Shown here one piece after another: positions 420 through 39,977 of a DNA stretch of 64,000 nt. The notes below the pieces were generated by a model, which did no database searches, was not told the origin of the DNA, and worked only from the letters and a program-made list of their open reading frames with translations. The position numbers were made by a program, and so were the translations under genes. Position 1 is the first letter of the stretch. Each line of letters begins with the position of its first letter. Location: contig OY776215.1 in assembly GCA_963675495.1 (NCBI GenBank), positions 608,001-672,000 of the forward strand, read 5' to 3'. The DNA is from an uncultured Methanolobus sp. GTDB taxonomy: Archaea; Halobacteriota; Methanosarcinia; Methanosarcinales; Methanosarcinaceae.

Positions 420-602
420 TTATACTGGGACCTGACGCTGAGGTACAGGGAAATCAGTGAGAGCGTGAATATTATTGTCAAATGAATTGGATCTTGCAGC
501 CAGGACACGGTATTTGCCACAGTAGGTGCCGCCGCCGTTCTCAGTGCAGGTCATGGATGTAGAACTTGCGTGCTCGCACTTGTCATAGTATTTGCATTTC
601 AT
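420..602 (-). CDS. Small Cys-rich hypothetical protein (60 aa)
   Basis: MKCKYYDKCEHASSTSMTCTENGGGTYCGKYR with 4 Cys. A GAGG RBS precedes the ATG at 602; the longer ORF-track start runs into the repeat motif and is unlikely. Confidence 0.6.
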   Translation of the reverse strand: MKCKYYDKCEHASSTSMTCTENGGGTYCGKYRVLAARSNSFDNNIHALTDFPVPQRQVPV

Positions 603-777
603 TTTTGTTCCTCTATATAGCCACATTATTAGTAATATGTTATATAGTTTTTTATTTATAAATTTAGATTGTGGAACAAGTGATCTTCGAGGAATTATAG
701 GATACATCTTAGGGTATTTGTGTGCATTGGTAAGATTTTTGGAAAAATGAAGGTGGTGTGGATACTTAGATGCAATA

Positions 778-806
778 CAACCATCCGCCGCATGCGGCAC
801 GGTCCA
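778..806 (+). repeat. Cassette-boundary hairpin motif copy 1
   Basis: CAACCATCCGCCGCATGCGGCACGGTCCA. Confidence 0.85.
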
Positions 807-877
807 TTGTCACTGATATAGAAAGACATATGCAGGAGCAACGCAAAGTGAAGAATCAGAATGATAAAATCCTGAGT

Positions 878-1164
878 TTAACAACGGTTAAATCTTTGCC
901 TTAATTTATCGTAAATCGAAGATCTATAATCTACAGCATAAAAAATAATATTGTGCATGACATCAATATCAAACACTATTCTGTATTTCCCCACCCTATA
1001 CCTATAATATTCGAAACACTGCAATTGCTTGGTATTAGCTGTAAAAGGATCAATTAAATTATGCACTCTATTGAACGAACGATCTTTTTGACATCAGCAG
1101 GATGCTTCTTACGAATTGCTTTTAAATCTTTCTTAATTAAAAACATTCGTAAAGATACCTTCAT
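878..1164 (-). pseudogene. RelE/ParE-family toxin, frameshifted near 1064-1070
   Basis: MKVSLRMFLIKKDLKAIRKKHPADVKKIVRSIE in one frame continues in another frame as HNLIDPFTANTKQLQCFEYYRYRVGKYRIVFDID (RelE motif YRxRVGxYRIVF). Lies directly downstream of an antitoxin. Confidence 0.75.
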
Positions 1165-1167
1165 ACC

Positions 1168-1347
1168 TCATTCTAATCCAAATTCATCTTTGAGCTCTTT
1201 AAGAGTACAAACATTGCCTTCTTTAAGATCTCTTTTTGCTTCCTCGATGCGTTTAATAGTCTTTGAGCTCAAAGGCATAGAGTCAACATCAGTAATTGTA
1301 GAACAAGATCTTTTCGTTTTAGAACATGGATGAGTATTTAGAACCAT
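1168..1347 (-). CDS. Archaeal RelB-like antitoxin (59 aa)
   Basis: Not in the ORF track. Reads MVLNTHP...PLSSKTIKRIEEAKRDLKEGNVCTLKELKDEFGLE, a typical archaeal antitoxin C-terminus. Its stop is 3 nt before the toxin ATG. Confidence 0.7.
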   Translation of the reverse strand: MVLNTHPCSKTKRSCSTITDVDSMPLSSKTIKRIEEAKRDLKEGNVCTLKELKDEFGLE

Positions 1348-1488
1348 TTATATACAATATCTCATGCACACTTAAATAAGTAGTACCAAAAATGGCTCTT
1401 TAGAAATCTCCAATATTCGAACTTCTCAGCGGTTCGTATTTTAAGAAGGTAGCAAATTTATCTTTCCGACCTGCTAATTTAAGCTTTA

Positions 1489-1577
1489 TTGTCGTAACAA
1501 TTATTGTTTAAACAATAATACGTAACATCTACCAGAATAGATTTACGACGTAGCTATGAACTATCAGGAATACAACG
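1489..1577 (+). repeat. 89-bp non-coding duplicated segment, copy A (contains a 20-bp perfect palindrome)
   Basis: Ungapped match to 4066-4154 with 7 mismatches. ATTATTGTTTAAACAATAAT at 1500-1519. Confidence 0.9.
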
Positions 1578-1607
1578 CAACCACCCCGCAAAAGGCGGCA
1601 CATTCCG
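1578..1607 (+). repeat. Cassette-boundary hairpin motif copy 2
   Basis: CAACCACCCCGCAAAAGGCGGCACATTCCG. Confidence 0.75.
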
Positions 1608-1689
1608 ACACCATAAAAGAACAGGACAAAACCGATATCCCATCAAAAATAGACCCACAAAAACATTTCCAGCTCCAAATACAAAAGAA

Positions 1690-1953
1690 TCAATATATTA
1701 CATCATGGTGATCATAATCAAGTATCATGATTGCTTTTTTATCCGCATCTATTTCATAGATCAGCACAAATGAAGAGTCAATATGTACCCTCCTTGCACC
1801 GTGCAGATCACCACGTAATGGTTTATAGTGATACGGATTCAAGATTATCTGTTGAACTTTCTTGCTGATAATATTCATCTGCTTAGGATTCTTTTTAGCA
1901 AGCTTCATGAATTTCTTATCAGCAAGCTCGGATACAACAACGCAATACTCCAT
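1690..1953 (-). CDS. RelE/YafQ/StbE-family mRNA interferase toxin
   Basis: 87 aa with NPYHYKPLRGDLHGARRVHIDSSFVLIYEID...HHDVIY; downstream of a small antitoxin. Confidence 0.85.
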   Translation of the reverse strand: MEYCVVVSELADKKFMKLAKKNPKQMNIISKKVQQIILNPYHYKPLRGDLHGARRVHIDSSFVLIYEIDADKKAIMILDYDHHDVIY

Positions 1954-1958
1954 TATGT

Positions 1959-2186
1959 TTACCCGTAGCGTTCAGAAAAATCACTTACATGGACAAATTT
2001 ACCCTTCCTGATATTGTCAAGTTTTTCCAGGTATTCCTGACTTGCTTCCGGTTCCCTGGATATTACACTCTCCATGAACATCTGTATCTGTTTGCTCATG
2101 CTCATACCATGTGATTTACACAGGGCAGAGAACTCCTTATATGTATCTTCATCCACATTGAAAGTCTTTAATACCATTGAGATCAC
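1959..2186 (-). CDS. Antitoxin (ribbon-helix-helix-like N-terminus)
   Basis: LKTFNVDEDTYKEFSALCKSHGMSMSKQIQMFM fits an RHH pattern. Ends 5 nt before the toxin start. Confidence 0.75.
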   Translation of the reverse strand: MISMVLKTFNVDEDTYKEFSALCKSHGMSMSKQIQMFMESVISREPEASQEYLEKLDNIRKGKFVHVSDFSERYG

Positions 2187-2191
2187 ACCAA

Positions 2192-2268
2192 TTATTTAAT
2201 ATTTAATAATCTTATTTAATGTTTAATAACATTATTTAATCATATTTAATCATATTTAATCATATTTA
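2192..2268. repeat. AT-rich short tandem repeats (TTTAAT units, CATATTTAAT x~3) upstream of the TA operon
   Basis: attatttaat atttaataat cttatttaat gtttaataac attatttaat catatttaat catatttaat catattta. Confidence 0.7.
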
Positions 2269-2359
2269 CCCCCATACATATCAAGTTTTTTCAATTGATC
2301 AAAATGATATAGATCATTTAAACTTTGTAGAAAGATTCTACTTTAAATAAGCTGCAATA

Positions 2360-2388
2360 CAACCATCCACTGCAGGCGGCACTATCCA
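2360..2388 (+). repeat. Cassette-boundary hairpin motif copy 3
   Basis: CAACCATCCACTGCAGGCGGCACTATCCA. Confidence 0.85.
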
Positions 2389-2499
2389 CAATTACTGCAA
2401 AAAAGAAGATATATAGCCTGCTGATCAAAGAACGATCTCCAGCATTATCAGCGTATTTTCCATAACACATAAATAGTACGGAATTAAATCATAATTATT

Positions 2500-3930
2500 A
2501 TGTTCCGTAATTTCATTAATCGTGTCCATGAACTGGAATTCCTTAACAGGGAATATAGTTCAAAAGATCTTTCTTTCACCGTCATCTACGGACGCAGGCG
2601 AGTAGGCAAAACAGAACTTATCCAGCAGTTTGTGAAAGACAAGCCCCATATCTTCTTTCTGGCGGACATGAGAGGCACACGATCCAATACCCTCAGATTC
2701 AGGAAAAAAGCTTCAGGCTTATTCGATGATATAGAACCTGCAGCAGAGGCATTTGATGATGTGTTCGAATACATAAGTAAAAAATGGAAAAGTTCCAAAA
2801 AGCTTGTCATAGTTATCGATGAGTTCTCCTATCTGGCACAGACCGATAGATCCATACCGTCAGTATTCCAGCTTATCGTTGATGAGATACTCAAAGGAGG
2901 ACATTTCCATCTGATACTCTGTGGCTCATCCATTTCCATGATGGAAAAAACAACTCTTTCCCATTCAAGTCCTCTTTATGGAAGGAGGACAGGACAGATC
3001 AAGGTCATGCCACTGAGTTTACGCCACATGACTGGTTTTTCCCCGGAATCAACACCAGAAGAGCTTTTAAAAATATATGGTGCAACTGGAGGAATTCCTT
3101 TCTACCTCAGATTCTTTGATCCTGGAAATGATCTTTATGAGAACATAGGACAACACATATTTTCCAAAGATGCAGTATTATATGCCGAAGGCGAGTTCCT
3201 TCTTCGCGAAGAATTGAGAGAGCCGGCAACTTACATGAACATCCTTTATTCCATCTCCAAAGGTAGCACAAAAGCAGGAGAGATCGCTGCTGGCGCTTTC
3301 ATTGAAACAAAGGATCTATCATACTATACAGATACTTTGATGAGGCTTGGCTTTATCAGGAAAGAGCACCCTGTTGCAGAAAAAACATCTACCCGTAAAA
3401 CGATCTACGTTATAGATGACCCTTTTCTGCGCTTCTGGTTCAGATATGTACTGATACATAGAGATTCCATAGAAGCAGGTGATAATTCGCATGCCATCCA
3501 GGACCTGGATAAGAGCTACGACCGTTACCTGGGGGAAACGTTCGAACAGGTATCCAAAGAGATCCTTACATACCTCAATTTACAGGATAAACTCCCTTTC
3601 AGGTTCAGATCCATAGGCAGACAATGGGGAAAGATACCTAATATACCAAAAGGTAAAAATGACTATGAAATTGACCTGGTGGCCCTTGATCAGGATTCAA
3701 AGAACATACTCTTCTGTGAATGCAAATGGCAGAAGCAGAAGGTCAATACAGATGTCTACTTCAACCTGAGAGAGAAAGCGTGTCATGTAAAGTGGTTCCC
3801 CGAGAGAAAAGAACACTTTGCACTTATCAGCAGATCGGGTTTCACAAAAAAGATGCATGAAATAGCAAAGCAGGAGAATGTTCTGTTACTTACCCTGCAT
3901 GATTATTTGTCCAGATCTTCTGCTGAATAA
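2500..3930 (+). CDS. Archaeal AAA ATPase (ATPase_2) with wHTH and DUF234 PD-(D/E)XK nuclease-like domain
   Basis: FINRVHEL, Walker A YGRRRVGKT, Walker B IVIDEF, LCGSS, PLYGRRT, DPFLRFWFRY, and EIDLV...FCECKW. Confidence 0.9.
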   Translation: MFRNFINRVHELEFLNREYSSKDLSFTVIYGRRRVGKTELIQQFVKDKPHIFFLADMRGTRSNTLRFRKKASGLFDDIEPAAEAFDDVFEYISKKWKSSKKLVIVIDEFSYLAQTDRSIPSVFQLIVDEILKGGHFHLILCGSSISMMEKTTLSHSSPLYGRRTGQIKVMPLSLRHMTGFSPESTPEELLKIYGATGGIPFYLRFFDPGNDLYENIGQHIFSKDAVLYAEGEFLLREELREPATYMNILYSISKGSTKAGEIAAGAFIETKDLSYYTDTLMRLGFIRKEHPVAEKTSTRKTIYVIDDPFLRFWFRYVLIHRDSIEAGDNSHAIQDLDKSYDRYLGETFEQVSKEILTYLNLQDKLPFRFRSIGRQWGKIPNIPKGKNDYEIDLVALDQDSKNILFCECKWQKQKVNTDVYFNLREKACHVKWFPERKEHFALISRSGFTKKMHEIAKQENVLLLTLHDYLSRSSAE

Positions 3931-3941
3931 GTTCAAGAATA

Positions 3942-3965
3942 CAACCTCACTGCAAAGGCAACACA
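3942..3965 (+). repeat. Cassette-boundary motif copy 4 (degenerate)
   Basis: (AATA)CAACCTCACTGCAAAGGCAACACA, 11 nt after the ATPase stop. The hairpin is eroded. Confidence 0.5.
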
Positions 3966-4009
3966 TAAAAATAATATTGTGCATTACGACTAAAAGGCGT
4001 AAGGGTAGA

Positions 4010-4044
4010 GAAAGCCCACGCACTTTAGTCATGGGAGCAGTCAC
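4010..4044 (+). mobile_element. IS200/IS605-family right-end remnant (no transposase or TnpB)
   Basis: GAAAGCCCACGCACTTTAGTCATGGGAGCAGTCAC resembles the typical AAGCCCACGACTTTAGTCGTGGG...TCAC subterminal hairpin and terminal TCAC. Confidence 0.65.
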
Positions 4045-4065
4045 AACCTATCAATTCATGCGTTG

Positions 4066-4154
4066 TTGTCATAACAATTATTGTTTAAACAATAATAAGT
4101 AACATCTACCAGAATAGATTTACGATGTATCAATGAACTATCAGGAATACAATA
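4066..4154 (+). repeat. 89-bp non-coding duplicated segment, copy B
   Basis: 82/89 identical to 1489-1577; palindrome at 4077-4096. Confidence 0.9.
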
Positions 4155-4183
4155 CAACCATCCGCCGAAGGCGGCACGGTTCA
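4155..4183 (+). repeat. Cassette-boundary hairpin motif copy 5 (best stem: CCGCC-GAA-GGCGG, outer AACC/GGTT)
   Basis: CAACCATCCGCCGAAGGCGGCACGGTTCA. Confidence 0.9.
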
Positions 4184-4265
4184 CAATTACTGAAAAAAGA
4201 TGAGTTATAGCCTGCTGATCAAAAAATATATATATATAAAAAATAAAAAAAATAATCAAAGGAAC

Positions 4266-4862
4266 TCAAAACATTATCTTTGCCTTTATCTGAGCTAATT
4301 CATGTTCTATTGTTGAGATCCTCTCGTCAAGATGAGACCTGAAATCATCCCTGTTCAACCGAACCTCGGATGCTATTTCTGTTCTGTTTTGGTCAATCTT
4401 TTCACCAACCACATCGATCTTATCACCCAATCCATCGATCTTCCCACTTACGACTTCGACTTTACTGCCAACCGAATCAACCCCATCACCGACCCTGTCG
4501 ATCTTCTGCCCGAGATTCGAGTTCATTTCACGCATATACCTCACAGCTGCATCCATTCGCTCATAAGTTGCTGTGGTCAGATCCTCGTCTCTGACTATCT
4601 CAAATGTACCATACTCGCCAGTTGCTTTTGTGTAGACTACATCGATATTCGTTACACGTATAGGATATTGAGTGATGTTGACTTTTTCAAGTAACTCCCT
4701 GATGCTGCCCTCTGTACCCTCACAGACAACTTGCACCGTGCCATCATCGAGATTTTTGACATATCCATTAAGAGCCAGATCAAAAGCTATTTCGTCAATG
4801 AAATCCCTGAAACCTGCTTTCTGAACTCTGCCATGTATTATGACCTCTGCACGCTTCTTCAT
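4266..4862 (-). CDS. Acylphosphatase domain fused to a C-terminal heptad-repeat coiled coil
   Basis: HGRVQKAGFR and GYVKNLDDGTVQVVCEG acylphosphatase motifs, then KIDRVGD/GVDSVGS/KVEVVSG/KIDGLGD/KIDVVGE heptads. Probable start MKKRAEV at 4862. Confidence 0.8.
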   Translation of the reverse strand: MKKRAEVIIHGRVQKAGFRDFIDEIAFDLALNGYVKNLDDGTVQVVCEGTEGSIRELLEKVNITQYPIRVTNIDVVYTKATGEYGTFEIVRDEDLTTATYERMDAAVRYMREMNSNLGQKIDRVGDGVDSVGSKVEVVSGKIDGLGDKIDVVGEKIDQNRTEIASEVRLNRDDFRSHLDERISTIEHELAQIKAKIMF

Positions 4863-4942
4863 AAGAGTTGATTTTTCCTGAAGCAATATAAACGTTATTA
4901 TCATATCTCATTAACAAGCCAGAAATAATCACAGAACTTAAA

Positions 4943-4971
4943 CAACCACCCGCCGCAGGCTGCACACACCA
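4943..4971 (+). repeat. Cassette-boundary hairpin motif copy 6
   Basis: CAACCACCCGCCGCAGGCTGCACACACCA. Confidence 0.8.
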
Positions 4972-5015
4972 TCACCAAAAATGTAAAAAGAAAATCCGGA
5001 GAATAGTCTTTGCCC

Positions 5016-6314
5016 TCATTCAAGCAACCATTTCCACACAGGCCTAACACTTATTTTCCTGCCATCCATTTCAAGCGCTTCCTCCGTATCTTCCGTGAGT
5101 ATGAGACCTTCTTTCAGCCCGTACTTATCCATAGCTTCCAGAAGTCCTGCTATCTCTCTTTTTTCATTTGACCATTCCATCCTCTGAGTAACCTGTATTG
5201 CTTTTATGATATGTCCCTTCTCCATCAATATGAAATCACACTCATTCTTATCCACGTGGTAATAGATATCATGCCCCCTGTTTTTCAATTCAAGGAATAC
5301 AATGTTCTCAAGTGTTTTGCCTGTATCCTTTGAGAATTTGAAGGCAAGAACGTTCATCAGTCCTGTATCTATGATATAGGCCTTCTTCTTTGAATATATC
5401 TGCTTTTTAAGAGAGTAATCAAAAACATTGATCGTAAAGATCAGATAAGAGTTCTCCAGATGATCTATGTAATTTTTCACTGTTGTCTGGCTGCCAATTC
5501 CTAGGACGTTCTTTAACCTGTTATAGCTTATCTCAGTTCCGGGATTAGTTATCAGATAATACGCAAGGGATCTTATTGCAGTCTCGTCCTTAATACCATA
5601 TCTTGCGATAATATCCCTGTACAGGATGTTATCATAGAGGTTCCTGATTATGTCCTTATTTCCGTATTTATAATACTCTGGAATGCCGCCATTTTCAAGA
5701 TACTGACTGAATTCTTTTTTGATCCTTGCTCTCTCCTCTGTCAGATAAAACTCCTTTTCAGTTTCTATGCCTTTTGAACCCATCAGCTCTTTGAATGAGA
5801 AAGGATAGAGTTCAAGTTTCACATGTCTTCCGGTAAGCTTTGTCCCCAGCTCCCTGCTCATCAAAGAAGAATTTGAGCCGGTGATGTAGAATTTGAAACC
5901 CCGGTCATACATCCGCCGTATGAATGCTTCCCAGTTGGGTATGTTCTGTATCTCATCAAAGAAAAAGACCTTGCTCTCTTTTGATGTTTCCAGAAATGAT
6001 TCATACAGGGCATTGAAATCGCCTACTTTGAAGTCAAGCAACCTTTCATCTTCAAAATTCATGTAATATATGTTATCTTCCGGATAGTATCTTTTTTTTA
6101 TCTGTTTTAAAAGGGTGCTTTTACCCGCACGTCGCAGACCAGTGATAACCACTATATGAGGAATTTGGGAGTAACTTTCTATTTCTTCAAGCTTCTGGCG
6201 CTTTATTGTCGGCACCTCCATTTCAAACTCCTGCTTTTGCTCTGCTATAAGCTCCTTTATCTGCATAATATCCATAAATTGCATTCTGTGATGAATGCAT
6301 ATATATATTTCCAT
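5016..6314 (-). CDS. AAA_14 ATPase with DUF4143 domain
   Basis: GLRRAGKST, FFFDEIQN, ITGSNS, LTGR, GGIPEY, KKAYIIDTGL, LENIVFLEL, ECDFI. The true start may be a downstream Met (~6269). Confidence 0.9.
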   Translation of the reverse strand: MEIYICIHHRMQFMDIMQIKELIAEQKQEFEMEVPTIKRQKLEEIESYSQIPHIVVITGLRRAGKSTLLKQIKKRYYPEDNIYYMNFEDERLLDFKVGDFNALYESFLETSKESKVFFFDEIQNIPNWEAFIRRMYDRGFKFYITGSNSSLMSRELGTKLTGRHVKLELYPFSFKELMGSKGIETEKEFYLTEERARIKKEFSQYLENGGIPEYYKYGNKDIIRNLYDNILYRDIIARYGIKDETAIRSLAYYLITNPGTEISYNRLKNVLGIGSQTTVKNYIDHLENSYLIFTINVFDYSLKKQIYSKKKAYIIDTGLMNVLAFKFSKDTGKTLENIVFLELKNRGHDIYYHVDKNECDFILMEKGHIIKAIQVTQRMEWSNEKREIAGLLEAMDKYGLKEGLILTEDTEEALEMDGRKISVRPVWKWLLE

Positions 6315-6393
6315 TTAAAATGGAGATTATTACTCACAAATTGTCATTGATAATGGAGATTATAGCAATGATATCTCCATTTAAAATAGAGAC
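6307..6393. promoter_or_regulatory. Three imperfect palindromic boxes (TCTCCATTTAAAATGGAGA-like) at 33-bp period
   Basis: ATGGAGAT starts at 6320 and 6353, ATAGAGAC at 6386. The boxes overlap the 5' region of the ATPase gene. Confidence 0.55.
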
Positions 6394-6444
6394 ATTGCAC
6401 TCCAAAGTACATTATACGAAAAGTCTATGAACGCATATCGACCA

Positions 6445-6474
6445 AAACCATCCCGCTGCAGGCGGCACAGTCCA
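6445..6474 (+). repeat. Cassette-boundary hairpin motif copy 7
   Basis: AAACCATCCCGCTGCAGGCGGCACAGTCCA. Confidence 0.85.
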
Positions 6475-6577
6475 TCAATACTGTTGTAACAAGAATGTAT
6501 AGATATTCTCTAGGCAATGTTGCAAAGAAAAAAGAACATAAACACATGTGATCAGTTATGATCTTTATTGCATCCAT

Positions 6578-7858
6578 TCACTCAAGCAGCCATTTCCACA
6601 CAGGCCTCACGAAGATCTTCCTTCCATCCCTTTCGATCATATCTTCAGTATCCTTTGTAAGTATGAGACCTTCCTCCAGATCATAGGTCTGCATTGCTTC
6701 ACGTAAACCTTCGACCTCACGTTTTTTGTTGTCCAGGTTCAGCTCCTTTGTCACCTGAATAGCATTGGTTATTTTATTATCTGCTTTTATCAGAAAATCG
6801 CACTCATATGTACCTTTATGGTAGTAAACTTCGTTCTGTCTTCTTATAAGCTCTATAAAGATCAGGTTTTCAAGCAGTCTGCCGTAGTTCTCTGAGAACT
6901 TGAAAGACACTGCATTTATCATACCAGTATCAAGGCAGTATATCTTCTTTGGATTTGCAAGTTGTTTCCTGAGAGAATAATCAAATTTTTTGATGGAATA
7001 TAATAAGTATGAGTCTTCTGCGTAGCTCAGGTACTCTTTTACCGTATCTGCAGATATTTCCAAGACATTTGCTATGCTGTTGTAAGAAAAAGGCTTGCCA
7101 ACATTTGAAATAATGAAGTATAGCAAGTTTATTACATCCCTGTTATTCCTCAGTTTATGTGGAAAGATTATGTCTTTCAGGTATATGGTCTCATAATAAT
7201 TTTTTAAAAGCTCTTCTTTGATGTCATTGTCCCCTTCAAGAGAGATCCGGGGGAAAGAACCATGCTTGAGATATTCCTCGAACTCCAGTTTTTTCTCACC
7301 GGATGTCAGCCTTTTGAGTCCTTTGAAATCCAGATATTCTTTAAAGGTTAGTGGAAAGACCGTTACTGCAAGGTATCTTCCTGAAAGACGTGTGATGGTC
7401 TTCTTTTTAAGTAGGGATGATGTGGAACCCGTCAATACAAATTTCAGGCGCTTGTCAGTATCGTATAATATTTTCAGTGTCTGCGTCCAGTACCTGAAGT
7501 TCTGGACCTCATCAAGAAAAATGTAGTATCTTTCTTTTTTCGTTGCCGCGATATGATCTTCAATGATACCCGAAAGAAGAACGGCACTCTCTGACCTGCT
7601 CTGGAACACCGGTTCATCAAGGTTTATGTAAAGTACCGACATGGCCTCGTTTTCAGGCAGTTCAAGACTGCTGATAAGCTGGTATATGAGAGTTGACTTG
7701 CCCGTCCTTCTTGCACCAAGTATTAGCAGTATCTCTTCCGTACCCATATATTTGGCTAAACGTGGATAATAATGAAGACGAGGTATACTCGTACTGTAAC
7801 TTTTTCCGAACCACCCCGGATTCTGCTTTTCCAGCACTTCTTCGATCAGTTGTTCCAT
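6578..7858 (-). CDS. AAA_14 ATPase with DUF4143 domain (paralog of 5016-6314)
   Basis: GARRTGKST, IFLDEVQN, LTGSTS, LSGR, KKIYCLDTG, LENLIFIEL, ECDFL; shares the C-terminus DGRKIxVRPVWKWLLE. Confidence 0.9.
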   Translation of the reverse strand: MEQLIEEVLEKQNPGWFGKSYSTSIPRLHYYPRLAKYMGTEEILLILGARRTGKSTLIYQLISSLELPENEAMSVLYINLDEPVFQSRSESAVLLSGIIEDHIAATKKERYYIFLDEVQNFRYWTQTLKILYDTDKRLKFVLTGSTSSLLKKKTITRLSGRYLAVTVFPLTFKEYLDFKGLKRLTSGEKKLEFEEYLKHGSFPRISLEGDNDIKEELLKNYYETIYLKDIIFPHKLRNNRDVINLLYFIISNVGKPFSYNSIANVLEISADTVKEYLSYAEDSYLLYSIKKFDYSLRKQLANPKKIYCLDTGMINAVSFKFSENYGRLLENLIFIELIRRQNEVYYHKGTYECDFLIKADNKITNAIQVTKELNLDNKKREVEGLREAMQTYDLEEGLILTKDTEDMIERDGRKIFVRPVWKWLLE

Positions 7859-7895
7859 AATGACTTATTTGTTTTTCAAGTTAAATAAAATTACC

Positions 7896-7944
7896 GATTA
7901 TAATCTATGATTTACAGCAGAAATTCAGATTATAATCGATGATT
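7896..7944. promoter_or_regulatory. Two GATTATAATC palindromic boxes 32 bp apart upstream of the ATPase
   Basis: GATTATAATCTATGATT at 7896 and GATTATAATCGATGATT at 7928. Confidence 0.5.
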
Positions 7945-7989
7945 GTGTGATATATATACTTCAATCACAAACTTCCATATAAAAAATAA

Positions 7990-8016
7990 TAACTCCGCCG
8001 CGGGCGGCACAGTCCA
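7990..8016 (+). repeat. Cassette-boundary hairpin motif copy 8
   Basis: TAACTCCGCCGCGGGCGGCACAGTCCA. Confidence 0.8.
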
Positions 8017-8084
8017 TCCATTATACATAAAAACAATTATACTGACAAATTACAGATCAAAAAAAAAAGCCCAAAACTAACCTT

Positions 8085-8669
8085 TCACTCCAAAGGCTCA
8101 TAACTAAAACCAAAACCAAGGTCCTTCAGAGCCAGAAGTGCCATGAACATCACACAGAAGATGAAGAACACCGACACGAAACAGGCGAAATTATAGTAGA
8201 AGAAGTCCACGCCTGAGAGTCTGACGTTCATAACGGCAAAGATGCTAAGTGGTTCATTATAGAACGGATACAGGTAAGTAAGGCCACCATCAGCGATGTC
8301 ATCCAGAAGCAGATGGGACAGGAAAGCTGCCTCTGCGAATATCCCCAGGGATGAGGCTTTTGATGTGTTCCTGTATAATACGTATCCAAGCATAAATGCA
8401 AGTATGAATGCCACCAGACCAAAAAGAAGTGAATGTGTAGGAACCGGACCTATCAGTGTATGACTCAGGTTGCCGTGGAGTACATAGTTCCACACCGCAG
8501 GCACGTCCGGGAACACCGAACCCACACTGCCGACAACAAACAATAAGCTCAGGTGTTTTACATCCTTAAAGCTCATCTCCTTGCGAAAGCCACTTCCTGC
8601 AATTGCAAAGATCCCTACAAGGGAAATGCAGAATATGAAGAACGCAAAGTGGAACGCTGGATATGGCAT
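8085..8669 (-). CDS. Membrane metal-dependent hydrolase (YdjM/DUF457-like), type B
   Basis: N-terminal H, GSVFPD, THSLLF, SHLLLDD, YLYPF; several TM segments. Confidence 0.75.
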   Translation of the reverse strand: MPYPAFHFAFFIFCISLVGIFAIAGSGFRKEMSFKDVKHLSLLFVVGSVGSVFPDVPAVWNYVLHGNLSHTLIGPVPTHSLLFGLVAFILAFMLGYVLYRNTSKASSLGIFAEAAFLSHLLLDDIADGGLTYLYPFYNEPLSIFAVMNVRLSGVDFFYYNFACFVSVFFIFCVMFMALLALKDLGFGFSYEPLE

Positions 8670-9586: not shown

Positions 9587-12500
9587 ATGAAGACGAGGAT
9601 CGAAGAGAACATCAAGCTCAAAAAACTTGTTACATACTCAGAGGAACTCTTCCAAAGCCCCGCTGACACAATAGACTATCAAAGAATAACCGATGGGATA
9701 CTTGACCTGTCCGAAGCAAAATATGCGGTTTTCAATCTGTTTGAAGAAAAAACAAATTCCTTTTTTACAAAAGCTGTTTCAGGCCCACTTAACGATGTCA
9801 AAAGAATCTATTCGATGATGGGATTCAACCCTGAAGACAAGGGATGGAAAAGGAATCCTCATCTTGCAAAAAAAATTCAAAACCGCAATATCACCCGTTT
9901 TTCTGCTTTTCATGAACTGACCGGAGAACAGATTCCGAAAAAGACCGCAATACTTATGGAAAGAACCTTCGGTGCAGGAGAGACAATTGTAGCAAATATA
10001 TTCAAAGACAATATCAATCTGGGTTATTTCATATTGGTGATGGCTTGCGGAAAACTACTGACCAATGAAGACCTCATCGAAGTCTACACCCGGCAGGTAG
10101 GCCTCTTACTGGACCGGAAAAAAGTAGAAGAAGAGCTTCAATTTCAGTTCAGGTTCCAGAAGATGGTCTCTGAGATATCGGCTTGTTTTGTAAGTGTACC
10201 TGATAAAGAACTGGATAGTATAGTTGATGAGGCACTTAAGAAATGTGCCGTACTGTTTGAAGTCGATCGGGCCCACATATTTCTTTTTTCAGAAAATAGA
10301 ACAAAGATAAGCATTACCAATGAATGGTGCACACAGGGAATAGAATCCCATATAGACAATGTACAGGATCTACGCCTCAACGATTTCCCATGTTTTGAAG
10401 AGATCATAAGAAAGAACGGATACTTGCATGTACCGGATCTTGACAAACTCCCCCCTGAAGCAGATACTGAAAAGGACGTGCTCAAAACACATTCAATTCG
10501 ATCACTTCTGGACATACCCCTTACAAAAGATGGAAAAATTGTCGGCATCATGGGATTTGATGCTACCAGTAACAGGCATGAGTGGAGTGAAGAACAAATA
10601 TCACTTCTAAAAGTGGTAGCCGGGATAATAGCCAGTGCATTTGAAAAGAAATATGAAACTGAAGAATTGATCAATCGGGAGATGCAACTCAATAACGCCC
10701 AGAGGATCGGACACACAGGAAGCTGGGAGTTTGACCTGAACTCAGGAATGGTTCATGCCTCGCAGGAAGCTCACAGAATATATGGACTGGAAAACAGATA
10801 CCTAACCGTAAGGGAAGTGCAAAGCGTCGTACTTCCTCAATACCGTTCAATGCTTGACAAAGCACTTTCCCGACTCGTTGAGGAAAATCATCCATATAAC
10901 GTAGAGTTCAGTATCAAAAAACCAAACTCCGGTGTTGTTCGTCATATACACTCCGTGGCTGAGTATCATGCTGATAAAAATGTAGTGACCGGGACTCTCC
11001 ATGACATCACCGAGCGTAAGGAAGCAGAAGACAGGCTTGCTGAAGAGGAAGTCTGGAAGCACGTACTGATAGAGAATTCCATGGATGGGATCGTAGTACT
11101 CGATAAGACCGGCAAGGTCTACGAAGCTAACCAGCGCTTTGCAGACATGCTGGGTTATTCGCTGGAAGAGGTCAGAAAATTGTCACTATGGGATTGGGAT
11201 GCACAATTTACGCAGGAACAACTACTTCATATGGTCAAAAATGTGCATAAAGCCGAAGATTATTTTGAGGCATTGCACAAGCGTAATGATGGAACGGTAT
11301 TCTATGTTGAGATAAGTGCCATCAGCGCCATGTGTGGCGAACAGGAACTTGTCTTTTGCATGTGCAGGGATATCTCTGACAGGAAACTTTCTGAAGAAAA
11401 ACTGAAGAACAGGACACAAACACTGGACCTGGCACTGGAAGCAACCTGTGCCGGAATATGGGACCTTGACCTGACAACCGGCAACATACAATTGGAAGGG
11501 CTGGAGAGCTGGGAAATGATCACCGGATATACCATGAGTGACTTCCCTGATTTCAACCTTGAAATGTGGGCCGAAATGATACATAGAGATGATATAAGAT
11601 ATGTCACTCAAAAGTTACAGGATACAATTTCCGGTAAAGAACAACGCTATATAGCAGAGTACAGGATGCAACACAAAGAAGGTCACTGGGTCTGGGTTCG
11701 TGCTCATGGCAGGGTTGCAAGGTACGATAGTGCAGGCAATCCCCTCAACATGTACGGAACACATATCAGCATCAATGAAAGTAAGGTGGCTGAAGAAAAA
11801 GCGAAAGCTGCCAGCAGGGCAAAGTCAGAGTTCCTTGCCAATATGAGCCATGAGATACGCACCCCATTAAATGGTATCATTGGTTTTTCCGACCTGCTGA
11901 TGCACTCAGAACTCAAAGAGCAGCAATTGCAGCACATGCAAACGATACACACATCTGCCAATTCATTGCTTGACCTGATCAATGATGTACTGGACATTTC
12001 CAAGATAGAAGCCGGTAAACTGGAATTGGATACGGAAACTATCGACGTGATAGAACTGTGCGAACATATAACAGATATGCTAAAATACAGGGTCCATGAA
12101 AAAGGTCTTGAACTATTATTGAACATCTCACCACAAATACCACGTTATGTTGTGGCTGACCGCTTGAGATTGAGACAGGTGCTGGTAAATCTTTTAGGAA
12201 ATGCCATAAAGTTCACCGAGACCGGGGAAATTGAACTTAAGATTGAAGCTACTGGCAACGATCCAGGTAAGATGGAATTCACATTTTCCGTAAGAGATAC
12301 CGGAATTGGGATCGCAGAGGACAAACTGCCAAGGATATTCGATTCATTCTCACAGGCAGATGGATCGATCACCCGAAAATATGGAGGGACAGGACTTGGT
12401 CTTAGTATCTCTAATGAACTGCTGGAGAAAATGAACTCCAGACTCGAACTTCAAAGCAAAGAAGGGCAAGGAAGCAACTTCTATTTTACTGTATGCCTTC

Positions 12501-38921: not shown

Positions 38922-39869
38922 TTATGGCTTTGTAGAAATCCTCATTTGTATAATAAGTACAACCTTGACATACATGTCAAGGTTATGTACTAAGAGTTTT
39001 AGTTTGACTTCTTTCACTTGATTCCAATACTTTTTAGCCCTGATCTCTTCACTATATTTTCTTTTCAAAACAGAGAACATCGTTTCAACCAGGTTTCTTT
39101 TATGATACAATTCTTCATCAAATTCCCATACCATTTTTCTGCGATATATCATTAAATCACAGATTTAATGAGAGTTCCTGATTTTTAATCTGGAACATTT
39201 CCCTTTAATTCTCTTCCTCTTCCTTTGTCTCAAAGGAATCATAGCTATCGCTTCTAGTTGTTCTCTTGTTAGCGAATGTATGTCTTCTGAATCATATCCT
39301 TTGTCCATGACATAATACTTAGATCTGCGAGTTTTGTGGCATTGCTTCATTAATTTCATTGCATGTTTTGCATCATGCACAGGCTTACCTGATATCTTGA
39401 AACCAGTAACAATGAACTTTGCAGTATCAATGGAGATACTTGTTTTCAGGAAATATCTTCGTTTCTTTCCTGTTCTCCAGGAATAATAGTAACTACAGTG
39501 TCCACTACTAAACCCACTTGAATCAATAGCAGTGATCTCTATCTACTCTCCGCGTGAATAGAATAGTTTTAGTGTTTGCTGCAATAATCCAGTGAAGTAG
39601 ATAGATTTAATTCTTGTAATGAATTTATGCAGTGTAGTAAAATGTGGAACTTCTTTTAACCCAATTCTTGCTTTAACTTTATCCATCACTTCTACAAGTT
39701 CAACAATATCTCTATAATCTTCATCAAGATACTCTTTCAACAAAACCAATGTCAATAGCTAGTGTAGGGTATATTTCCTTTTAGAATATTTACAACTATA
39801 AATCCCAAGGTGTGAGTTTCCTGATACAGCTAATGCTGTATCAACAAACTTTAAGTACTTATTAGACAA
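38922..39869 (-). pseudogene. IS5-family DDE transposase, interrupted
   Basis: One reading frame from TTG 39869 carrying PHFTTL, TAIDSSG, HDA, MDKGYDS and [13 protein letters not shown]. Interrupted by TAG at 39759-61, TAG at 39543-45 and a 51-bp insertion containing TAA. Confidence 0.88.
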
Positions 39870-39977
39870 AACACAATCATCCCCTATGTGTTTTCTGTAG
39901 CAAGTAATACTCAGGGGATTTATCCTTTTTAAATTATTATGCTAAAATAAAATATGAAGTCGGTTTTCTACAGAGCC
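38926..39977 (-). mobile_element. IS5-family (ISH1-like) insertion sequence with TIRs and 8-bp target duplication
   Basis: TIRs GGCTTTGTAGAAATCC (38926-38941) and revcomp GGCTCTGTAGAAAACC (39962-39977), 14/16 identical. CATTTTAT flanks both sides (38918-38925, 39978-39985). Confidence 0.9.

Follow-up and report, generated by a model that had tools for sequence, protein, structure and literature searches.

The window analysed here comprises 64,000 nucleotides from an uncultured Methanolobus sp. (GenBank assembly GCA_963675495.1, contig OY776215.1, positions 608,001 to 672,000 of the forward strand). It opens, in a hypervariable region, with an array of small gene cassettes separated by a short repeated motif, and the element in question is the fifth copy of this motif (4145..4223, core 4156-4177) with its two flanks. 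Eight motif copies, one of them decayed, make up the array; they span 767-8036, all on the forward strand, at a spacing of 788 to 1795 bp. Between each pair of neighbouring cassettes lies one repeat, always in the same direction, and the cassettes themselves are unrelated. On the left the array is bordered by a gene for a 60-residue Cys-rich protein and a glycosyltransferase cluster, and on the right by ydjM-family genes. The genome of the window is called G000 below, and the other G-numbers designate the Methanolobus genomes compared with it, the genus set counting 36 genomes with G000 included.

The Cys-rich gene (420..602, reverse strand) is a conserved left border, with homologous DNA at the same place in nine other Methanolobus loci, and its product belongs to no Pfam or PADLOC family. 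In most Methanolobus genomes the array has this gene on its left, and G008 has it twice (locus L053, 8531-8716 and about 12014-12193). Motif copy 1 (767..826, core 779-800; profile score 52.1 bits) is an exact match to the motif pattern. The first cassette body (878..1347, reverse strand) consists of a ParE-like fragment at 878-1066 (ParE_toxin, E = 2.8e-4, below the curated cut-off) and a 59-residue open reading frame (ORF) at 1168-1347 that matches no Pfam family; positions 1137-1341 are 78% identical to G008 L053 14368-14572, and positions 1233-1601 are 88% identical to G001. There follows, at 1393..1410 on the forward strand, a box similar to the terminal inverted repeats of IS5-like insertion sequences (IS), 15 of its 18 bases agreeing with the end GGCTCTGTAGAAATCCTG; it was read from the sequence itself, being too diverged for the box scan, which allowed at most three mismatches. 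A segment that we call the end module (1469..1577, forward strand), with a perfect 20-nt palindrome at 1500-1519, then leads into motif copy 2 (1568..1623, core 1579-1601; 31.6 bits).

The next cassette body (1624..2350, reverse strand) encodes a ParE/RelE-type toxin at 1690-1953 (ParE_toxin, E = 5.5e-7, 30.5 bits for a cut-off of 23) and a RelB-like antitoxin at 1959-2186 (RelB, E = 5.2e-4, 20.3 bits, just under the cut-off of 22.4). As its two small genes adjoin and belong to known toxin and antitoxin families, this unit between copies 2 and 3 would classify as a type II toxin-antitoxin (TA) system. Between the start of the RelB-like gene and copy 3, three to six tandem 10-nt units of the ATTATTTAAT type occupy 2191-2260, and these are partly kept in the TA cassette of G012. 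Motif copy 3 (2351..2429, core 2361-2382; 41.0 bits) has a long right arm ending in ...TATAGCCTGCTGATCAAA. It precedes an ATPase cassette on the forward strand (2500..3930), with the domains ATPase_2 and DUF234 (Pfam E = 2e-26 and 4.2e-26) and a match to the PADLOC candidate family PDC-S27 (E = 9.5e-56). Copy 4 (3943..3964, forward strand; AACCTCACTGCAAAGGCAACAC) is decayed, with four substitutions relative to the pattern, and was missed by the profile search. The unit between copies 4 and 5 is nearly gene-less: it holds a 21-nt remnant (3967..3987, forward strand) that matches 941-961 of the first cassette at 95%, and a second copy of the end module (4046..4154, forward strand; palindrome 4077-4096), which is the left flank of copy 5.

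Copy 5 itself scores 46.1 bits and has the long right arm. Beyond it lie an acylphosphatase-domain cassette (4266..4904, reverse strand; Pfam E = 2e-19), copy 6 (4932..4991, core 4944-4965; 34.1 bits), a first ATPase cassette of the AAA_14 plus DUF4143 type according to Pfam, 'a' (5016..6314, reverse strand; PDC-S01, E = 8e-124), copy 7 (6434..6496, core 6446-6468; 44.8 bits), a second cassette of that type, 'b' (6578..7858, reverse strand; PDC-S01, E = 8e-115), and copy 8 (7977..8036, core 7988-8010; 33.8 bits), the last one, beside the right border. This border is a conserved gene for a YdjM-family membrane protein (8085..8669, reverse strand; Pfam E = 2.5e-9), with DNA matches in 29 of the 36 genus genomes, G000 among them. 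Upstream of the two DUF4143 genes, palindromic or direct repeats are present at 6305-6395 and 7889-7944, of the ATCTCCATTTAAAATGGAGAT type and, twice, CGATTATAATCTATGATT. The second set is kept upstream of a gene 83% identical to cassette 'b' (6582-7914) on the Methanomethylovorans hollandica plasmid NC_019972.1, and we regard these repeats as probable operators that travel with the genes. In G012, an IS605-type element carrying TnpB only interrupts the DUF4143-a cassette (L068:2920-4120).

The whole repeat measures 60 to 80 nt, and the consensus of 25 aligned copies reads GAATACAAWAC-AACCAYCC-GCCG-nnn-GCGGCAC-nkTCCAyCAyCACTGAA. It is made of a conserved 5' extension (GAATACAAWAC), a 22-nt core (AACCAYCC-GCCG-nnn-GCGGCAC) with a dyad of 4-5 bp of the form CCGCC-N3-GGCGG, and a variable right arm. 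Allowing up to three mismatches, the pattern is found four times in the window, for 0.01 matches expected from 100 shuffles. A profile search of the 64 kb returned seven copies (767, 1568, 2351, 4145, 4932, 6434 and 7977), all on the forward strand and all within the first 8.1 kb. Folded as single-stranded DNA, four copies gave on both strands a hairpin of 4-5 bp only, with z-scores of -2.25 and -2.5 for copy 5 and of -0.3 to +0.7 for copies 1, 3 and 7. Rfam had no match in the window at gathering thresholds, and the scan of the window for tRNA and tmRNA genes found none. A coding function of the motif was considered and rejected, as the ORFs over copies 1, 2 and 5 differ in frame and copy 2 carries a 1-nt insertion.

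Copy 5 joins sequences that elsewhere in the array are separated by the TA unit. A preliminary description of this DNA had matched the left flank of copy 5 with that of copy 2, and its right flank with that of copy 3 rather than copy 2, and both matches were recovered. On the left, 4066-4154 and 1489-1577 agree at 82 of 89 positions without a gap, while the runner-up ungapped placement of this 89-mer on the forward strand of the window reaches 44 of 89 (mean 25.3, standard deviation 4.5); a repeat finder lengthens the pair to 118 nt at 87% (1469-1586 versus 4046-4163). On the right, 4184-4223 aligns with 2389-2429 with 37 matches, three mismatches and one 1-base gap (the runner-up ungapped match of these 40 nt within the window is 23/40), whereas the alignment to the right flank of copy 2 scores -1 over 40 nt. 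The cores of copies 2 and 3 start at 1579 and 2361, which gives the TA unit the length of 782 bp first reported for it, and the proposed geometry is borne out: what flanks the TA unit at copies 2 and 3 is contiguous at copy 5. When the three copies are aligned, copy 5 tracks copy 2 up to 4149 and copy 3 from 4153 onwards. Since the intervening CAA (4150-4152) is common to all three, the apparent switch is placed 4-6 nt 5' of the 22-nt core, in the conserved left extension.

The long right arm (...TAGCCTGCTGATCA) is restricted to copies 3 and 5, with no occurrence in the 35 other genomes of the genus. Because it is absent from all of them, the right-arm match represents a paralogy specific to G000 and not a common type of arm. 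The left flank, a module some 110 nt long, is found directly left of the motif in seven loci of six genomes, the other genomes being G001, G008 (twice), G013, G016 and G012, and occurs twice in the window array. It probably is the promoter and operator end of a cassette and serves the gene on its left; a reverse-strand DUF234 gene has it immediately upstream in G016 and G012. As the unit between copies 4 and 5 opens with the 21-nt match to the first cassette and closes with the end module, it looks like a decayed paralogue of the cassette between copies 1 and 2. The name 'empty site', given to copy 5 in the preliminary description, is correct as to the unsplit geometry, but the joint is a paralogous and not an allelic one. 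A history in which a joint of module, motif and long arm existed twice, one instance being now split by the TA unit and one motif, would fit these data. The reverse history, duplication followed by deletion of the TA unit through a crossover of copy 2 with copy 3, is equally allowed, so that the TA unit may have been inserted or, following a duplication, deleted.

We propose, with a probability of about 0.62, that copy 5 is a joint in a repeat-delimited cassette array, in which recombination from one repeat copy to another adds, removes and rearranges the cassettes. The TA unit of 782 bp would be one cassette plus one repeat. Copies 2 and 3 would then be the halves of a joint that the TA unit split, and copy 5 the same joint unsplit, at the decayed second cassette. 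The repeat itself would be the substrate of exchange.

The same chromosomal site was followed in the other genomes, which belong to one genus and so do not count as independent samples. Lying between the Cys-rich gene and ydjM, this conserved site carries the motif in G008 (nine copies), G012 (six, plus one reversed), G050 (four), G009, G006, G023, G016, G049 and G001, and G013 has an array with the same cassette types on a contig that ends before ydjM. Array by array, the copies sharing one direction number 7/7 (8/8 with decayed copy 4), 8/8, 9/9, 6/7, 4/4 and 4/4. Recurring cassette types (acylphosphatase, DUF4143-a and -b, DUF234, AlbA_2, HicAB, MNT/HepT and ParE/RelB) appear in varied order, so that the islands are mosaics of cassettes. 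The acylphosphatase cassette, for instance, recurs in G009, G050, G049 and G012; across G000, G012, G050 and G049 it has four different right-hand neighbours, and homology stops in the motif each time. DUF4143-a is shared from motif to motif: 4940-6474 is 91.5% identical to G008 L053 14660-16193, and the DNA outside is unrelated. The TA unit (1657-2223) is 87% identical to G012 L068 1487-2052, where it also lies between two motifs but with other neighbours. In G001, the closest relative (about 88-91% identity), the order is 59-residue ORF, IS-end box, palindromic module, a single motif and then the right border; this joint is unsplit and there is no TA unit. Among copies 2, 3 and 5, the core and following bases of this single site are nearest to copy 5.

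Metagenomic relatives, from runs examined as contigs, vary at the same places. A contig of run X5 that is about 97% identical to the window has 266 nt in place of 4864-6273; at copy 7, between 6427 and 6449, it contains an additional stretch of about 1.7 kb. A contig of run X6 joins 4863 to 6453, consistent with absence of the DUF4143-a cassette.

For a broader view, 1176 pairs of 49 motif copies were compared for flank homology. Twelve pairs were informative: four had homology on both sides, seven on the left only and one on the right only. Comparing flanked motif copies across genomes, as the preliminary description had envisaged, thus gives one-sided homology in 8 of 12 informative pairs, but no single crossover position fits all cases. 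For this reason the exchange zone would be bounded only roughly, from a few bases 5' of the core (about -6) to some 55 nt 3' of it. Ends of homology blocks between islands (blocks of at least 150 bp) concentrate at the motif: 73 of 172 fall within 100 nt of it (1000 randomisations average 17.8% and do not exceed 26.7%), and 27 of 172 fall inside it (null 4%, maximum 10%); incomplete detection of the motif in diverged islands lowers the apparent enrichment. To the left of the motif, cassette sequence is conserved right up to the core. Of the earlier proposal that exchange happens at or within the motif, the first part is supported, in the form of exchange at or next to the motif, by the change of neighbours there in other genomes, and the second is not.

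The array of the window is not the only one in G000. A profile search of the whole genome (2.87 Mb, E at most 1) gave 20 matches, seven in the window array, eight in a second array and five elsewhere. The second array (genome 582530-588770, all eight copies on the reverse strand) lies 20-25 kb upstream of the first, follows argG, and separates HicAB, MNT/HepT and ParE-type cassettes. The two arrays are inverted and face each other across a glycosylation gene cluster of about 19 kb, a layout also found in G016 with a much smaller centre. The interval from argG to ydjM measures 33.6 kb in G000 versus about 6 kb in G001. A HicAB cassette of the second array has a counterpart of 80% identity in G049 and G006, within their ydjM-side island.

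Outside Methanolobus the motif is practically absent. A strict core pattern was found in 13 of 24 sampled other genomes of the genus versus none of 16 genomes of other genera in the order, and when one genome per prokaryote species was searched, 32 of 36 matching stretches were titled Methanolobus. The phage collection gave no match, and the plasmid collection only the DUF4143-b gene of NC_019972.1, which has no motif nearby. A viral attP origin was rejected: seven loci on viral contigs all had 52-73% G+C and yielded one weak profile match (9.3 bits), and we take them as due to chance. A scan of metagenome contigs yielded 16 loci, mostly short, of which two had the left border with one to three motif copies and none added an integrase. 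Literature searches on Methanolobus integrons, genomic islands, TA systems and repeats, and on transposable elements of the miniature inverted-repeat kind (MITEs) in Methanosarcinales, returned no description of the motif among the papers listed.

Several observations weigh against recombination between repeats as the source of this diversity. The border genes are adjacent in G019 and G043, where the site is empty and devoid of the motif, so that there is no standing acceptor site. Many homology-block ends fall inside cassettes or genes. To the right of the core, the first 20-55 nt show no linkage to either of the adjacent cassettes. The left 55 nt of the TA unit are wholly different in G000 and G012 despite the 87% identity of its body. 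Dispersed copies of the G006 type, described below, suggest that the motif can also spread in other ways. No recombinase gene was found in or beside any island examined, and G000 has six tyrosine-recombinase matches, none of them within 100 kb, and neither a resolvase nor a Y1 transposase. Finally, the contigs of runs X1 and X4 contain no excision joint, although contigs cannot show rare variants.

The question arises as to how recombination between repeats could proceed. Two mechanisms are considered. In the first, an enzyme encoded in trans would recognise the conserved core, which would make the array a functional analogue of an integron. The conservation of the core, the strict direction and the presence of one site per cassette favour this mechanism, to which we nevertheless give somewhat less than an even chance. 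The second is unequal homologous crossing-over on short direct repeats, favoured by the variable switch points, the missing acceptor site and the lack of a nearby enzyme; we consider it a serious candidate too, at odds well short of even.

If an enzyme is involved, it would have to act from elsewhere, since no Phage_integrase domain was detected in the island ORFs scanned. A tyrosine recombinase of 197 residues reduced to its catalytic domain (genome 495283-495876; L137:12283-12873) is a candidate. Orthologues exist in 10 of the 36 genus genomes, seven of which bear arrays; these genomes are related, and we take the protein as a lead and not as evidence. Its gene adjoins a DUF1699 gene, in an integrated element with an integrase and a primase; on plasmid NC_019972.1, DUF1699 and SEC-C genes likewise lie next to the DUF4143 gene. 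Y1 transposases were rejected as partners, for want of correlation: PF01797 has no match in G000 and in G009 (25 motif copies), and four in G010 (no copy). The most specific formulation, an undescribed system of site-specific cassette capture, with a 22-nt hairpin-core site, a recombinase elsewhere in the genome (perhaps the 197-residue one), and two inverted arrays, one on each side of a glycosylation cluster, in which TA and candidate defence cassettes are stacked, is possible but must be regarded as tentative, with the odds clearly against it.

Among the explanations that dispense with recombination at the motif, the one that survives best holds that the motif is a mobile element, akin to repetitive extragenic palindromic (REP) sequences or MITEs, inserted independently in the spacers of a gene cluster that was variable beforehand; the flank matches of copy 5 would then result from a local duplication of 180 bp, and cassette turnover from homologous replacement via flanking genes. 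In some relatives the motif is indeed dispersed on both strands, with 71 copies in G006 (35+36), 25 in G009 (14+11) and 19 in G012 (7+12). In G006 it is part of a unit some 190 bp long, whose bounding inverted boxes are the ends of an IS5-like insertion sequence. Moreover, none of 24 dispersed contexts scored lies between divergent genes, as expected if the element is tolerated only in 3' spacers, and both the right arms unlinked to their neighbours and the empty sites without motif speak for this hypothesis. However, independent insertions should face either way, and the array copies share one direction. The copies of the window array lack the paired inverted ends of the G006 unit, a single end-like box (1393-1410) being present. 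One-sided flank homology in most informative pairs and homology blocks that run from motif to motif, such as 4940-6474, are also difficult to reconcile with it, and the presence of exactly one motif per cassette is left unexplained. We consider independent insertion unlikely.

A decayed copy of this IS5-like insertion sequence, 1052 bp long and with a frameshifted transposase, lies in the window at 38926-39977; the boxes that delimit the motif-bearing, MITE-like unit of G006 are its terminal inverted repeats (GGCTYTGTAGAAAWCC). The scan at up to three mismatches finds 25 such boxes in G000. We also compared by eye the ends of the 180-bp segment around copy 5 with the IS5-like terminal repeat, but the likeness was too weak to use. 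G006 also has 124 copies of a second conserved box, GCCGGCTTCGCCGGACCCTTCGGG, with two small hairpins. Of 30 loci (L138-L167, such as L138:1360-1560), 29 have this box 137-162 nt downstream of the motif core. On the opposite strand its hairpins resemble that of the core, which suggests a bipartite element of the type formed by paired REP sequences (REPIN-like). G000 has five copies of the second box, none of them within the arrays. These G006 loci were picked via the second box and not via the core, which is present in 29 of 30. Mean pairwise identity among the 29 is 0.92 in the core, versus 0.50, 0.58 and 0.42 in adjacent stretches; as the copies were chosen independently of the core, it must be maintained by selection or homogenisation. 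At E values up to 1, Rfam gave on four G006 repeat loci a single microRNA match, due to chance.

Families of such repeats are known, or have been proposed, as rearrangement hot spots beside variable genes, namely REP and bacterial interspersed mosaic elements (BIMEs), associated with the REP-associated tyrosine transposase (RAYT), and the dRS3 repeats and intergenic mosaic elements (NIMEs) of Neisseria. The Methanolobus motif resembles them in being a short extragenic repeat with dyad symmetry, with many dispersed copies in some genomes and a mosaic arrangement with other boxes (box A, core and box C in G006). It differs from REP sequences and BIMEs in having no GTAG-type 5' tetranucleotide and no Y1 transposase in G000 or G009, and in that 15 of the 20 copies of G000 belong to two ordered arrays, with only five outside.

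A second hypothesis makes the motif a regulatory or insulating spacer (the 3' end of a transcript, a terminator or a protein-binding site) that moves along with autonomous gene units, each with a promoter, gene and end element of its own; it would mark the borders of cassettes but play no role in recombination. Each gene on the reverse strand has the motif 50-110 nt past its stop codon, with a T-run before the motif on that strand; the cassettes have promoter-like regions of their own, divergent spacers are avoided by the motif, and gene-linked palindromes travel with DUF4143 genes, even to the plasmid of another genus. This last case also provides an argument to the contrary, since the plasmid copy of DUF4143-b is devoid of the motif, so that the motif does not accompany this gene. 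The DUF234 gene lies on the forward strand, yet the motifs on both its sides keep the direction of the array. The dispersed motif shows no preference relative to co-directional flanking genes (nine cases with both on the reverse strand versus seven with both on the forward strand), which argues against a strand-specific role in RNA, and the hairpin is weak, with z-scores between -0.3 and -2.5. We therefore find a purely regulatory role improbable.

Could the array be a true integron, or a cluster of attC sites lacking integron-integrases (CALIN), the motif being an attC site acted on by an integron integrase? attC sites are imperfect inverted repeats of 55-141 nt (R''-L''...L'-R', with boxes RYYYAAC/GTTRRRY) that form a long hairpin with extrahelical bases. 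The motif does not correspond to this definition: the folds of the four copies give a 4-5 bp hairpin with no extended imperfect stem, the 25-copy alignment contains no GTTRRRY box as commonly defined, and the repeat is organised around a 22-nt core without R and L boxes. G000 has no IntI; its best match to the integron integrase family TIGR02249 reaches 39 bits for a cut-off of 265, and the only one of the 36 genus genomes to pass, G017, does so on a small contig and has no motif. Also unlike integrons, most genes are oriented against the repeat and have their own promoters, and the empty sites have no attI-like acceptor.

Nevertheless, the organisation is integron-like. CALINs are defined in one study by at least two attC sites less than 4 kb apart (PMC9668308), and the window array has this spacing, with one site per cassette, a single direction and TA cassettes; such geometry alone confers no membership. 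The same study reported archaeal integrons of the classical attC/IntI type in 75 genomes assembled from metagenomes (MAGs), which belong to nine phyla (Ghaly et al. 2022, PMC9668308), its main text mentioning no name that begins with Methanosarcin or Halobacteri. Sedentary (chromosomal) integrons and CALINs, including the archaeal ones of that study, share with the Methanolobus arrays a one-way arrangement with one repeat per cassette, unrelated cassettes that are mostly single genes or TA pairs, some gene-less cassettes, a content that varies between close relatives at a fixed site, and many arrays without adjacent integrase. The defining parts of an integron, IntI and attC, were tested for and are absent, and we consider an origin as a true integron highly improbable.

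An assembly artefact behind the duplicated flanks is just as hard to credit: the region is repeat-rich and metagenome contigs break at copies 1 and 5, but left flanks that differ at 7 of 89 positions and right arms that differ by three mismatches and a gap do not stem from reads that were collapsed or duplicated; run X1 has a 58.7-kb contig (possibly the source of the assembly itself) that spans 700-8100 with no difference; run X4, from another sample of this organism, has contigs all along 700-8100 without any structural joint; and comparable structures exist in ten other genomes.

Two other known types of modular array deserve comparison with the cassettes that we propose to be exchanged through their repeats. 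In tandem accretion at an att site, integrative elements and cis-mobilizable elements (CIMEs) form modules placed between direct att-like repeats; modules lacking an integrase of their own would rely on its supply in trans. The Methanolobus modules are likewise separated by direct repeats and devoid of integrase. However, their array has neither a tRNA or gene target nor an end element bearing an integrase, the repeats are diverged (about 70-90%) where those of accretion elements have near-identical cores, and the modules are very small, at 0.2-1.6 kb. On Acinetobacter plasmids, pdif/Xer sites of 28 bp (11-6-11, with a spacer of 6-8 bp) alternate in direction and bound small modules, often TA pairs, found in varied contexts. 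The modules are alike in these last respects, but the Methanolobus dyad has a spacer of 3 nt and its sites are direct repeats.

Arrays of cassettes built on a dedicated site are well understood only for integrons, and the archaeal ones reported, all in MAGs, are integrons of the classical attC/IntI kind. Here, a cultivable methanogen genus presents the same organisation on a different and much shorter repeat, without IntI, together with natural variation between species and metagenome relatives that can be followed at single-cassette resolution, and with predicted junctions known to the base. If it is true that an enzyme recognises the core, the Methanolobus arrays would represent a second, independent solution to cassette capture and possibly a tool for methanogen genetics. 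If instead their rearrangement is driven by homology, they would show a REP-like repeat organising an island of defence and TA genes.

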